Below, piece by piece: positions 1-5,849 of a stretch of 5,849 bases of DNA. The stretch lies in IMG/VR virus record IMGVR_UViG_2711768015_000003. One strand, 5' to 3'. The stretch's first letter is position 1. Every line of letters starts with the position of its first letter. This stretch comes from a virus. Lineage: Duplodnaviria; Heunggongvirae; Uroviricota; Caudoviricetes. The position numbers were made by a program, and so were the translations under genes. Below the pieces are notes generated by a model. The model made no database searches and was not told the DNA's origin. It saw only the letters and a program-made list of their open reading frames with translations.

Positions 1-567
1 AAAATTTCTTTTTTTCATTGGAGCACCTGTGTTGTTCTGAGGTGAGCATATCACCTCTGTTCAGGTGGCCAAATTCAGTGTGCCACTTCATTGTCGGTCA
101 GGTTACGTAGTGAACCTCTGGCAGGGGACTGATAATGCATCATTCTGGTGTTGTAAATATCTCTTCGGACAACTTACAAAATATTCTAAGCAAACCCCGG
201 GAACACACTCTTAACTGCCTTGGCTGGCGGTTTTTTGTACAGTGCTCGGTATGTGTGAGCTGGAAATCAGATTTTGCATGGACTGGAATCATGCTGTTAT
301 TTAGGGGCGAAGAACTGGCTTTTTCTTCCGCCTTCTCACCAGTAACGATTAGAAAAATAATGAAATGCCCCCCTCCGGGGAGGAGGACCGTAGAAAAAAG
401 GACCCGCCAGCAAAAACATTGGGGATGAACAGCTTTCGCTACTCAGATTGCTGGCGGGTAAAGTTCCTCATGAATTAAGAATGCTACGCGATCTTTTTTA
501 ATGGAAATGAAAATTATTGTCAATTAGTCGTGCGTGTTTTTTCATACAATATTGGTAAAGGTGATTC

Positions 568-634: not shown

Positions 635-850
635 ATGTATCAGATGGAAAAAATATCAACAGGCATTGCCTACGGCACCTCCGCCGGCAGTGCCGGCTAC
701 TGGTTTTTGCAGTGGTTGGATCAGGTCAGTCCATCACAGTGGGCTGCGATTGGTGTGCTGGGAAGTCTGCTTCTGGGGCTTCTGACTTATCTGACAAATC
801 TGTATTTCAAAATAAGAGAAGACAAGCGTAAGGCTGCGAGAGGTGAATAA
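635..850 (+). CDS. S: Class II holin (phage 21 S21-like pinholin) with dual-start motif
   Basis: 71-aa [74 protein letters not shown]: two predicted TM helices and a charged C-terminal tail, closely resembling S21 / E. coli EssD-type pinholins as I remember them. Met1 (635) and Met4 (644) form the classic antiholin/holin dual start. A G-rich RBS lies upstream (623-632). The stop TAA (848-850) overlaps the endolysin ATG (850). Confidence 0.9.
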
Positions 851-1467: not shown

Positions 1468-1644
1468 GCAGTCTGTCAGTCAGTGCGTGAAGCCACCACC
1501 GCCTCCGGCGTGGATAATGCAACCAGCCCCCGACTGGCAGACACCGCTGAACGGGATTATTTCACCCTCAGAGAGCGGCTGATGACGATGCAGATGCAAC
1601 TGGAAGGGGCACAGGAGTATATCCGCACTCAGTGCATTAAGTAG
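1468..1644 (+). CDS. Rz: Rz i-spanin (inner-membrane spanin), C-terminal 58 codons; the 5' end is in the N gap
   Basis: Translation after the gap, AVCQSVREATTASGVDNATSPRLADTAERDYFTLRERLMTMQMQLEGAQEYIRTQCIK*, resembles the lambda Rz C-terminus as I recall it. Stop TAG at 1642-1644. Confidence 0.85.
   Translation, partial: AVCQSVREATTASGVDNATSPRLADTAERDYFTLRERLMTMQMQLEGAQEYIRTQCIK
1469..1582 (+). CDS. Rz1: Rz1 o-spanin (outer-membrane lipoprotein spanin), C-terminal 37 codons, embedded in the +1 frame of Rz; the start is in the N gap
   Basis: The +1 frame relative to Rz reads QSVSQCVKPPPPPAWIMQPAPDWQTPLNGIISPSESG*, a proline-rich sequence resembling the lambda Rz1 C-terminus as I recall it. 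Stop TGA at 1580-1582. This is the classic embedded-gene spanin architecture. Confidence 0.8.
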   Translation, partial: QSVSQCVKPPPPPAWIMQPAPDWQTPLNGIISPSESG

Positions 1645-1686
1645 CCTTTTTATCGTGGTAAACATTTCGCAGGGTATGAGGTATTT

Positions 1687-2037
1687 ATGCCATCACTAAT
1701 CCCACGTGCCTGCCGTAAGCGTGGATGTGCAGGTACAACCACAGACAGTTCGGGTTACTGCGATAAACATCGCGGTGAAGGCTGGGTGCAGCACCAGCGC
1801 GGACTGAGCCGCCACCAGCGTGGCTATGGCTCAAAATGGACGGTGATTCGTGCCCGTATTCTGAAGCGCGATAAAGGTCTGTGTCAGTTGTGTCTGCGTG
1901 TCGGTGTGGTGAGCGAGGCGAAAACCGTCGACCACATCATCCCGAAAGCGCATGGCGGAACAGACGCAGACAGCAACCTGCAGAGTCTGTGCTGGCCCTG
2001 CCATAAAGCGAAAACAGCGCGCGAACGAATCCGGTGA
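1687..2037 (+). CDS. HNH endonuclease, terminase-associated (HK97 gp74-like)
   Basis: 116-aa ORF with an RBS (gagg, 1677-1680) 6 nt before the ATG. It has Cys pairs (CRKRGC, CQLC, CWPCH) and an HNH core (VDHIIPKAHGGTDADSNLQSLCWPCH). It lies immediately upstream of terS, as is typical of HK97-like cos phages, and ends in a double stop (TGA TAA). Confidence 0.9.
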   Translation: MPSLIPRACRKRGCAGTTTDSSGYCDKHRGEGWVQHQRGLSRHQRGYGSKWTVIRARILKRDKGLCQLCLRVGVVSEAKTVDHIIPKAHGGTDADSNLQSLCWPCHKAKTARERIR

Positions 2038-2052
2038 TAATTATTCTCACTT

Positions 2053-2120
2053 GTAGGGAGGGGCGGGGCAAATCCCTGTGACCTGACGTCTTCCGGACTG
2101 CCCGCCCCATCGTTTTTTTA
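2053..2120. other. Candidate cos / packaging-recognition element in the HNH-terS intergenic region (GC-rich imperfect inverted repeat plus T-run)
   Basis: Non-coding 112-nt spacer between the HNH stop and the terS RBS. It contains gggaggggcggggca (2056-2070) and its imperfect reverse complement tgcccgcccc (2099-2108), about 28 nt apart, with an inner aggga/tccct repeat (2055-2059 / 2073-2077), followed by atcgttttttta. The position between the HNH and terS genes is where cos lies in HK97-like phages. Confidence 0.35.
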
Positions 2121-2158
2121 TACCCGCGAAAAATGAAATTTAACCAGGAGTGCCGCAT

Positions 2159-2653
2159 ATGGCTGGAACGGCGGGGCGTTCCGGGCGTCGCCCCAAGCCA
2201 ACGGCGCGCAAGGCGCTGGCCGGAAACCCCGGCAAGCGAGCCCTGAACAAAGATGAACCTGTTTTTACGCCCATCAAAGGTGTTGAGCCACCAGAGTGGT
2301 TCGCTGAAGAAGATCTCCCTCTCGCCACGATCATGTGGCAACTGACAACCAAAGAACTCTGCGGTCAGGGCCTGCTGTGCGTGACTGACCTGGCGGTACT
2401 TGAGCGGTGGTGCGTGGCCTATGAGTTCTGGCGACGTGCCGTGAAAAATATTGCCATACAGGGCAACACCATCACCGGTGCAATGGGCGGCAGGGTCAAA
2501 AATCCGGAGCTGACCGCCAAAAAAGAACAGGAGTCCGAGATGAGCAGCACGGGGGCAATGCTCGGACTCGACCCCAGCAGCCGCCAGCGTCTGATTGGCC
2601 TGGCGGGGCAGAAGAAAGCCACTAACCCGTTTCTGAAAATTATCGAATCATGA
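2159..2653 (+). CDS. terS: Terminase small subunit (P27-family-like)
   Basis: ORF with AGGAG (2145-2149) 9 nt before ATG 2159. The ORF track starts at GTG 2150, which overlaps the RBS, so I prefer 2159. The product is basic at the N-terminus ([41 protein letters not shown]...), as expected of phage small terminases of the P27 type. Its stop TGA (2651-2653) overlaps the terL ATG (2650) as ATGA. Confidence 0.85.
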
Positions 2654-4383
2654 GCCGGAAATCTTACCCCAACGTAAATGCTGCAAATCAGTATGCCCGG
2701 GATGTCGTGCGCGGAAAGATTGTTGCCTGCCAGTTTGTGATTCAGGCCTGCCAGCGCCATCTTGATGACCTGATGGCGGAAAAAAGTAAGTCGTTTCGTT
2801 ACCGCTTCGACAAGGACCTGGCTGAACGGGCCGCGAAATTTATTCAGCTGTTGCCGCACACCAAGGGGGAGTGGGCATTCAAACGGATGCCCATCACGCT
2901 GGAGCCGTGGCAGCTATTTGTGATCTGCTGTGCGTTTGGCTGGGTCAATAAAGGCACCCGGTTGCGCCGCTTCCGGGAGGTGTACACCGAAATCCCCCGT
3001 AAGAACGGCAAATCAGCAATCTCTGCCGGTGTTGCCCTGTATTGTTTTGCCTGTGATAACGAGTTTGGCGCGGAAGTGTATTCCGGTGCCACGACAGAGA
3101 AACAGGCGTGGGAAGTCTTTCGCCCGGCGCGACTGATGTGTAAACGCACACCCATGCTGACGGAAGCGTTCGGGATTGAGGTTAACGCCTCAAACATGAA
3201 CCGTCCGGAGGATGGCGCGCGGTTTGAACCGCTGATCGGCAACCCAGGTGATGGTTCATCACCCCACTGTGCCGTGGTTGATGAATATCACGAGCATGCC
3301 ACCGATGCGCTTTATACCACAATGCTTACCGGGATGGGGGCGCGACGTCAGCCACTGATGTGGGCCATCACCACCGCCGGGTACAACATTGAGGGGCCGT
3401 GCTACGACAAGCGGCGGGAAGTCATCGAGATGCTCAACGGCTCGGTGCCTAACGATGAACTGTTCGGGATCATCTATACCGTTGATGAAGGTGACGACTG
3501 GACCGGCCCGCAGGTGCTGGAAAAAGCCAATCCAAATATTGGCGTGTCGGTTTATCGCGAATTTTTGTTAAGTCAGCAGCAGCGTGCGAAAAATAACGCC
3601 CGTCTGGCAAACGTCTTTAAAACAAAACACCTCAATATCTGGGTGTCGGCGCGTTCGGCGTATTTCAACTTGGTGAGCTGGCAGAGCTGCGAGGATAAAT
3701 CACTGACCCTTGAGCAGTTCGAGGGGCAGCCGTGCATTCTGGCCTTTGACCTGGCGCGTAAGCTGGATATGAACAGCATGGCGCGACTTTATACCCGCGA
3801 GATTGACGGTAAAACGCATTACTACAGTGTGGCCCCGCGTTTCTGGGTACCGTATGACACGGTGTACAGCGTCGAGAAAAATGAAGATCGACGGACAGCC
3901 GAACGCTTTCAGAAATGGGTGGAAATGGGCGTTCTGACCGTTACCGATGGTGCGGAGGTGGATTATCGCTACATCCTCGAGGAGGCCAAAGCGGCGAACA
4001 AAATCAGCCCGGTCAGTGAGTCACCCATCGACCCCTTCGGGGCGACCGGGTTGTCACATGACCTTGCTGATGAAGACCTGAATCCCGTCACTATCGTCCA
4101 GAACTTCACCAATATGTCCGATCCGATGAAAGAGCTGGAAGCAGCGATTGAATCGGGACGTTTTCATCATGACGGCAATCCCATCATGACCTGGTGTATC
4201 GGCAACGTGGTCGGCAAAAACATGCCGGGTAACGATGATGTGGTGAAACCCGTCAAAGAGCAGGCGGAAAACAAAATCGATGGTGCAGTTGCGCTGATTA
4301 TGGCGGTTGGCAGAGCCATGCTGTACGAGAAAGAAGACACGCTGTCTGACCACATTGAGTCCTACGGGATCCGCTCGCTTTAA
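2650..4383 (+). CDS. terL: Terminase large subunit (ATPase plus nuclease)
   Basis: 577-aa ORF with a Walker A-like P-loop ([14 protein letters not shown]), a Walker B-like motif ([10 protein letters not shown]) and a C-terminal acidic nuclease-type region (DPFGATG ... [12 protein letters not shown]). The size and order are typical of a large terminase. It is translationally coupled to terS. Confidence 0.95.
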
Positions 4384-4394
4384 CTGAGGTAATT

Positions 4395-4577
4395 ATGATC
4401 ATGCTGATTCTCGCGCCTCTGGTGGGCGTGCTGGGTGCGCTTTTGCTGGCGTATGGTGCCTGGCTGATTTATCCCCCGGCGGGTTTTGTTGTTGCCGGGG
4501 CGCTGTGCCTGTTCTGGTCGTGGCTGGTGGCGCGATATCTCGACCGTACACGGCAGTCTGTCGGCGGAGGTAAATAG
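4395..4577 (+). CDS. Hypothetical small membrane protein (60 aa, two predicted TM helices)
   Basis: [63 protein letters not shown] has two hydrophobic segments separated by YPP and a basic C-terminus. gaggt (4386-4390) lies 4 nt before the ATG. It exactly fills the terL-portal spacer, and its stop TAG (4575-4577) overlaps the candidate portal GTG (4577). I recognise no family. Confidence 0.5.
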
Positions 4578-5733
4578 TGTTCTTTTCGGGATTATTTCAA
4601 CGAAAAAGCGATGTGCCGGTGACCACGCCAGCAGAACTGCTGATGCTATCGGGCTGTCATACGACACCTATACCGGAAAGCGGATCAGTAGCCAGCGGGC
4701 CATGCGCCTGACGGCGGTCTATTCTTGCGTCAGGGTGCTGGCAGAGTCTGTTGGTATGCTGCCCTGCAGTCTCTACAAAATCAGCGGTACCCTGAAAACA
4801 CGGGCGGTGGATGAACGACTGCATAAGTTGGTTTCGGCAAAACCTAATGGCTACATGACACCGCAGGAATTCTGGGAGCTGGTTATTGTCTGCCTGTGTC
4901 TACGGGGGAATTTTTACGCCTACAAGGTAAAGGCACTGGGAGAAGTGGTGGAGCTTCTTCCGATAGATCCGGGCTGTGTGGAACCGAAGCTGAACAGCCA
5001 GTGGCAGCCGGTTTATCAGGTGACGTTTCCGGATGGTTCCGTGGATGTGTTGACCCAGAATGAAATCTGGCATGTGCGCACCCTGACGCTGGATGGACTT
5101 GTCGGGCTGAATCCCATTGCGTATGCGCGTGAGGCCATTTCACTGGCAGCGGCAACCGAGGAGCACGGTGCCAGGTTGTTTAGTAATGGTGCGGTGACAT
5201 CCGGTGTGTTGCGTACGGAACAAAAGCTCACGCCGGATGCTTACGAGCGTCTGAAGAAAGATTTTGAGGAGTGTCACACGGGGCTTGGCAATGCTCACCG
5301 CCCGATGATTCTGGAAATGGGGCTGGACTGGAAGTCGATGGCGCTGAACGCCGAGGACAGTCAGTTCCTGGAAACCCGCAAGTTTCAGCTGGAAGAAATC
5401 TGTCGTCTGTTCCGGGTGCCGTTGCACATGGTGCAGAACACCGATCGCGCCACCTTCAACAATATCGAAGAGCTGGGGCTGGGATTTATCAACTATTCAC
5501 TGGTGCCGTATCTGACCCGCATCGAACAGCGGATCAACACCGGACTGGTACGAAAAAGTAAGCAGGGCGTTTATTACGCCAAATTTAACGCCGGGGCGTT
5601 ACTGCGCGGGGATATGAAGTCCCGTTTTGAAGCCTACGCCACCGGGATCAACTGGGGAATTTACTCTTCCAATGACTGCCGCGACCTGGAAGATATGAAT
5701 CCGCGTCCCGGTGGTGTAATGCCGATCAGTTAA
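4577..5733 (+). CDS. Portal protein (HK97-family-like); the N-terminal 26 codons are in a different frame from the main body (apparent 1-nt frameshift near 4651-4653)
   Basis: The main ORF (frame 1) runs to TAA 5731-5733 and looks portal-like in size, position after terL, and sequence (AMRLTAVYSCVRVLAESVGMLPCSLY...). The ORF track starts it at TTG 4486 inside the upstream gene, with no RBS and an implausible extension. In frame 2, GTG 4577 sits 6 nt after GGAGG (4566-4570) and reads MFFSGLFQRKSDVPVTTPAELLMLSG..., which looks like a genuine N-terminus, before stopping at 4709-4711. Adding one G to the GGG run at 4651-4653 would join the two frames as ...AELLMLSGLSYDTYTGKRISSQRAMRLTAVYSC... Confidence 0.8.
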
Positions 5734-5765
5734 GGATCAGTTGACCGATCCAGTGGCTGTGTAAG

Positions 5766-5800
5766 AATCCGGAAACGCTCACTTGTTTCCGGATTTTTTT
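5766..5800 (+). terminator. Intrinsic (rho-independent) terminator downstream of the portal gene
   Basis: Perfect 11-bp inverted repeat aatccggaaac (5766-5776) / gtttccggatt (5785-5795) with an 8-nt loop, running into a T-run that ends at 5800. Terminator geometry exists only on the + strand. Confidence 0.7.
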
Positions 5801-5849
5801 ATGCACATTGGACAGGCTCTTGATCTGGTATCCCGTTACGATTCTCTGC

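Follow-up and report, generated by a model that had tools for sequence, protein, structure and literature searches.

Why does the portal gene of this prophage segment begin in one reading frame and continue in another? A base may have been dropped by the sequencer from an intact gene, the gene may have been broken in the organism, or the two frames may be joined by recoding. The window, by which we mean the whole stretch of 5,849 nucleotides that was analysed, is a contig of Shigella sonnei with IS911 at one end and IS4 at the other. It carries a segment, in the order lysis-HNH-TerS-TerL-ymfR-portal, from a decayed phiP27/ST64B-like prophage (Table 1). Exact-sequence look-up of the TerL, YmfR and portal products returned Shigella sonnei names, in at least 1000 contigs each, and positions 1468–5849 are 100% identical to five of eight S. 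sonnei chromosome-scale loci and 99.7%–99.9% identical to the other three.

Both ends of the contig fall within insertion sequences. Annotated E. coli copies of the IS911 family match positions 1–90 with 97%–99% identity. Two IMG/VR contigs and the eight chromosome loci of S. sonnei diverge from the window leftward of position 89; judged from this comparison, the IS911-like end looks like a strain-specific insertion, which would account for the start of the contig. With this end at one terminus and the left end of IS4 at the other, the contig is therefore a piece of a short-read assembly ended by two insertion sequences. A mask of 250 N (1218–1467) lies over the end of the endolysin gene and the beginning of Rz/spanin, and the 264-aa "ORF" at 850–1644 is an artefact of reading through this mask. 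Where S. sonnei loci are unmasked, the genes in this place encode a lysozyme of 165 aa and a Phage_lysis protein of 154 aa.

Table 1. Features of the window, with the basis of each assignment
Feature	Coordinates	Strand	Basis or remark
End of IS911-like (IS3-family) element	1..90	-	left contig boundary
Holin	635-850		ORF listing and database matches
Endolysin	from 850		3′ end under N mask 1218-1467
HNH endonuclease	1687-2037		ORF listing and database matches
P27-family small terminase	2150-2653		ORF listing and database matches
Terminase large subunit	2650..4383	+	577-aa ORF, intact; TerL_ATPase and TerL_nuclease
ymfR, gene for a 60-aa membrane protein	4395..4577	+	TAG stop overlaps portal GTG
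Shine-Dalgarno GGAGG of portal	4566..4570	+	invariant among the homologues aligned
Portal codons 1-21, native frame (MFFSGLFQRKSDVPVTTPAEL)	4577..4639	+	residues 1-21 of the phiP27, A36 and ST64B portals
1-nt deletion, one G of CTG/GCT lost (Leu21/Ala22)	4639..4640	+	three homologues, L018, eight in-frame S. sonnei loci
Out-of-frame tail of N-terminal ORF	4640..4711	+	23 missense codons and TGA
Portal body, codons 22-380, frame 1	4639..5716	+	homologue alignment; Pfam Phage_portal
343-aa ORF, annotated "portal protein [Shigella sonnei]"	4702..5733	+	Met43 to stop within IS4
IS4 target sequence GTCCCGGTGGTG, left copy of 12-bp duplication	5705..5716	+	same 12-mer after IS4 right end in L009
IS4 left end, terminal repeat TAATGCCGATCAGTTAAGG...	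5717..5849	+	window ends within element

Portal start and site of the missing base

The sequence-only reading had placed the start of the portal at GTG 4577, behind a GGAGG and a 6-nt spacer, and this arrangement is seen on direct reading, with the GTG overlapping the TAG stop of ymfR (TAGTG). The frame-2 ORF that opens here has 44 codons (4577–4711) and ends at the TGA at 4709–4711, again as described. In frame 1, no start is found from the TTGs at 4486–4492, which lie within ymfR, to ATG 4702. The frame-2 ORF is indeed the true N terminus of the portal, as homologous portals open with MFFSGLFQRKSD at the equivalent GTG. Homologues starting at the equivalent of Met 4702 would have spoken against this assignment; instead, the annotated portals of phiP27, E. 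coli A36 and ST64B, which have 413–414 aa, start at the ymfR-overlapping codon. In the protein alignment, the frame-2 ORF corresponds to homologue residues 1–21 (MFFSGLFQRKSD.PVTTPAEL), and the frame-1 ORF matches the homologues from residue 22 on (ADAIGLSYDTYTGK...). The switch of frame that such an alignment had been expected to reveal is thus located at residue 21/22. On exact look-up, neither the 44-aa ORF, which was also searched with an explicit Met, nor the ORF from TTG 4486 is present in the protein collection; gene callers evidently do not call the 44-aa ORF.

Alignment of the DNA to related portal genes, the comparison that had been proposed, confirms that one base is missing relative to the intact homologues. 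Three of these align with a single gap, ...GAGCTGGCGGA... against ...GAACTG-CTGA... in the window, and L018, a more distant intact relative, has exactly GAACTGGCTGATGC at the deletion site. In the window, G4639 is at the same time the third base of Leu21 (frame 2) and the first base of Ala22 (frame 1). In a search with the ymfR-portal region, all 30 E. coli matches and all 20 phage matches listed are one base longer than the query. The same G is present in eight S. sonnei loci with an in-frame portal, where "-G" at 4639 is the sole difference from the window at the deletion site. The indel had been assigned to the GGG run at 4651–4653. This position is not correct; the run is unchanged in all sequences, and the true site lies 12 nt upstream, in the context of a GG dinucleotide and not of a homopolymer run. 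L018 was also considered as the ancestor of the S. sonnei sequence and rejected: it has the restored local sequence, yet its overall identity is 95%.

The IS4 insertion and the remains of the portal

A second lesion, overlooked in the sequence-only reading, is found at the other end of the gene, where the end of the frame-1 ORF is not the natural portal stop. Homology to the portal ends at 5716, and IS4 runs from 5717 through the last 133 nt of the window, a stretch matched by IS4 copies annotated in 2,649 genomes of E. coli, with 97%–98% identity among the matches listed. The frame-1 ORF closes with five IS4-encoded residues (VMPIS) and a stop at 5731–5733, and the natural last 33 portal codons (381–413) are absent. 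In L015, one of the S. sonnei chromosome loci, the full-length element measures 1426 bp between its terminal repeats (TAATGCC...). It encodes a 442-aa product with Nterm_IS4 and DDE_Tnp_1 transposase domains, as expected of IS4. The target duplication of IS4 is typically 11–13 bp, and the 12-bp repeat of GTCCCGGTGGTG is the expected duplication, its right-hand copy being seen in one scaffold only (L009). At unrelated E. coli loci (torT, mlc, ptrR), the best IS4 matches extend for 12–16 nt to the left of the element (5701–5716), which may reflect a target-site preference of IS4 or chance extensions among ~5000 matched places.

The sequence between the two lesions belongs to the portal family. 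The 343-aa ORF matches Pfam PF04860 (Phage_portal) with E = 1.7e-107 over profile positions 2–321 of 321, and the domain covers residues 5–331 of the ORF, corresponding to 47–373 of the intact protein. Met 4702 corresponds to residue 43, and IS4 cuts the protein after residue 380. An intact homologue aligns with the solved HK97 portal (8cez/8fql; E = 1.5e-53) over query residues 17–387; the N-terminal 42 residues, which are in part aligned to this structure, are lost from the 343-aa ORF. No uninterrupted ORF of ~413 aa leads from the ymfR-coupled start to the natural stop in the window. Judged from these alignments, the window portal is a predicted pseudogene of an HK97-family portal and not a functional member of the family.

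Prohead protease and major capsid genes do not follow downstream; in the eight chromosome loci, the genes after IS4 are those of the host. Seven of the eight have bamE-recN-nadK-grpE as the right-hand neighbours of IS4, and L015, where IS4 is intact (11016–12441), has raiA-pheA-tyrA-aroF. The differing flank of L015 indicates an IS4-mediated rearrangement. In the seven loci other than L015 (L010–L014, L016 and L017; 11016–13777), IS4 is interrupted by an IS3-family element of 1331 bp with a 5-bp duplication; from its size and the length of the duplication, we take this element to resemble IS2. On the opposite side of the locus, a DnaB-like gene is preceded by a further IS3-family copy. The prophage survives as a remnant with neither head nor tail genes next to it.

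The layout differs in one S. sonnei scaffold, L009, which has the 3′ end of the portal and protease, capsid and tail genes after the right end of IS4. The scaffold (product CST26286.1) is of the frameshift allele, yet it continues uninterrupted across the IS4 target site. Further on, the scaffold has an N, then a partial IS4 with its hairpin loop inverted. Positions 2433–2818 and 4197–4582 are a 99.2% duplicate of the portal-3′/protease segment, followed by head and tail genes. The layout reflects either an artefact of scaffolding or the presence of a second, related prophage. The junction of the IS4 right end with the portal was seen in L009 only, and on the evidence of this scaffold, some strains may still have the distal half of the prophage at another place. 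A 228-aa prohead-protease ORF was considered as a marker of IS4-interrupted prophages and discarded, as gene calls in intact E. coli prophages include it too.

Could the clipped portal still serve its host? The 343-aa core might be expressed from ATG 4702 and kept for the benefit of the host as a domesticated defence gene, a putative dominant-negative decoy that would poison head assembly in superinfecting phages of the SfII/ST64B/phiP27 type. The ORF keeps the entire Pfam Phage_portal domain, and with the whole domain predicted, it may have residual activity. The lysis and terminase genes upstream are intact, and the locus is present in essentially all S. sonnei assemblies sampled. Such a role is nevertheless very unlikely. 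There is no Shine-Dalgarno sequence ahead of ATG 4702, which follows an ORF that has already terminated, and the N-terminal residues missing from the core are part of a conserved structure. Nor is retention a sign of selection in S. sonnei, which is young and clonal, with loci that are 99.7%–100% identical. Similar decay in the e14 element of K-12 is annotated there as prophage remnants.

Recurrence of the deletion and order of the two lesions

The deletion is widespread in S. sonnei. An exact 29-mer spanning it was found in six IMG/VR contigs, each from a different genome project, and, together with the IS4 junction, in all eight S. sonnei chromosome-scale loci. Exact look-up places the 343-aa product, named as an S. 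sonnei portal, on no fewer than 1000 contigs. In the assembly collection it has index entries in 1695 blocks, of which 46 include contigs >1 Mb. A 28-mer over the deletion occurs in none of 5,426 complete E. coli genomes, and the exact 29-mer gave 0 matches in the representative-genome collection and in the metagenome collection. Its absence among species representatives is uninformative because GTDB does not separate S. sonnei from E. coli.

An allele that has kept the G also exists within the species. Exact look-up of a 385-aa in-frame protein with an IS4-derived C terminus returned "portal protein [Shigella sonnei]", and this product is found in 31 index blocks, compared with 1695 for the frameshifted one; ERR025742 and ERR1810436 are examples of in-frame isolates. 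All eight in-frame loci that were fetched read CTGGCT and join the portal to IS4 at the identical point. Over 1468–5849, they differ from the window, besides the G, only by a C at position 3670, plus two private SNPs. The T/C difference at 3670, where the window has T, is synonymous (TerL Leu341) and lies 970 nt from the deletion. T is present in 14 of 14 loci with the deletion, and C in all eight in-frame loci as well as in the K-12 e14 outgroup. Since both alleles have the same IS4 junction, IS4 is older than the loss of the G. The portal had already been cut by IS4, and therefore the frameshift did not inactivate the gene. By comparison with the outgroup, C at 3670 is the ancestral state, and the loss of the G and the change from C to T came later, on a branch inside S. 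sonnei. This branch now dominates the public S. sonnei assemblies.

Two proposals made from the sequence alone hold in part. A real inactivating mutation in a prophage had been considered, and the deletion is indeed genuine, recurrent and linked to a SNP, with homologues that are all single-frame; the portal, however, had first been inactivated by IS4. One extra G had also been predicted to fuse the two ORFs into a portal of ~385 aa. An in-frame allele of 385 aa does exist, but owing to IS4 it still lacks the 33 C-terminal residues.

These observations leave next to no room for a sequencing or assembly error, in which the gene would be in frame in the organism and the base dropped by the sequencer. 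Single-base indels are a frequent artefact, and two long assemblies, L013 and L016, have extra private indels that split TerL and TerS. The portal deletion, in contrast, is identical in all 14 deletion-allele loci and in >1000 contigs from many projects, lies at a GG dinucleotide where there is no homopolymer, and is perfectly linked to the SNP at 3670, a linkage that an artefact would not give. An artefact would be irreproducible and unlinked to real polymorphism, and the deletion is neither; the homopolymer error suggested earlier is ruled out by its recurrence across assemblies and by this linkage.

The private indels of the two long assemblies affect both terminase genes. In L013, TerL is split into 194 and 341 aa and TerS into 127 and 37 aa; in L016, TerL is shortened to a 498-aa call and TerS has 154 aa. 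They are probably long-read homopolymer errors, and they stand in contrast to the portal deletion, which is universally shared.

A programmed −1 ribosomal frameshift or transcriptional slippage joining the 44-codon ORF to the portal body, for which both frames are open over 4577–4708 and an A5 run is available at 4603–4607, is extremely improbable: no in-frame X XXY YYZ slippery heptamer is present in 4577–4711, A5 is too short for efficient transcriptional slippage and is equally present in single-frame homologues, every homologous portal is one continuous ORF so that the two-frame arrangement is not conserved, an in-frame allele with exactly this G exists inside S. sonnei, and the portal is truncated by IS4 in any case. 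A −1 slip on the A5 run was likewise rejected as a specific candidate, homologues with the same run being in frame.

The reading that we favour, with a probability of roughly 0.94, is that of two lesions, IS4 first and the frameshift later, in a decayed phiP27/ST64B-like prophage of S. sonnei. IS4 entered the gene behind codon 380, duplicated 12 bp of its target and replaced the last 33 codons. In the finished chromosomes, IS4 is now followed by host DNA in place of the protease, capsid and tail genes. Later, one G was lost at codons 21/22 on a branch inside the species. Ribosomes starting at the coupled GTG 4577 would now read 21 native and 23 missense codons and stop at 4709–4711, and the portal body would be readable only from the weak internal ATG 4702. 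Presumably no virion can be made, and the frameshift would represent selectively neutral decay of a gene that was already non-functional.

Comparison with known systems

For annotation, the appropriate label for the locus is that of a disrupted gene within a prophage remnant, and the 343-aa and 385-aa entries named "portal protein [Shigella sonnei]" are pseudogene fragments whose last five residues come from IS4. The 1-nt deletion and the linked T/C at 3670 provide a clean lineage marker inside S. sonnei. A 1764-bp record, OR844959.1 ("Enterococcus phage Efm 3-10"), is 96.6% identical to the ymfR/portal DNA (window 4380–4706) and is probably a contaminant or a mislabelled record.

The closest intact relatives are found in phiP27, ST64B, SfII/SfIV and prophages of E. 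coli, with nucleotide identities of 87%–95.6% over ymfR-portal among the matches listed and ∼92%–93% between intact relatives and the window over the longer module. They share with the window the ymfR-coupled GTG, the N terminus MFFSGLFQRKSD and the Pfam Phage_portal domain. In these relatives, the portal is a single 413-aa ORF, followed by a Peptidase_S78 prohead protease, a Phage_capsid gene and tail genes, whereas the window copy is without one G at codon 21/22, codons 381–413 and the downstream module.

Among described systems, the cryptic prophage e14 of E. coli K-12 comes closest, with homologous genes in the order ymfN/aaaE-ymfR-beeE-jayE. As in the window, a terminase is followed by ymfR, of 60 aa and with its stop overlapping the start of the portal, and by a portal remnant, in a decayed, non-inducible head module. 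In e14, this remnant is beeE (157 aa), and a pseudogene comes after it. The two differ in their lesions. The e14 portal is truncated at a much earlier point, and its terminase too is a pseudogene or chimera; in the window, TerL and TerS are intact and the portal carries a 1-nt deletion and an IS4 insertion.

In Shigella, IS1, IS2, IS4, IS600 and IS911 have expanded (Hawkey et al., 2020; PMC7373316), and of the S. sonnei genes that are interrupted, 12% have an IS together with another inactivating mutation (PMC7373316). The window portal is a member of this class. The word "prophage" does not occur in the main text of that paper (PMC7373316), where no account of this gene was seen, and the order of IS4 first and frameshift second was worked out in the present analysis. 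The locus raises no new biological question; it is an ordinary case of prophage decay in an IS-rich pathogen, and provides a small worked example of an IS hit that preceded secondary point decay.
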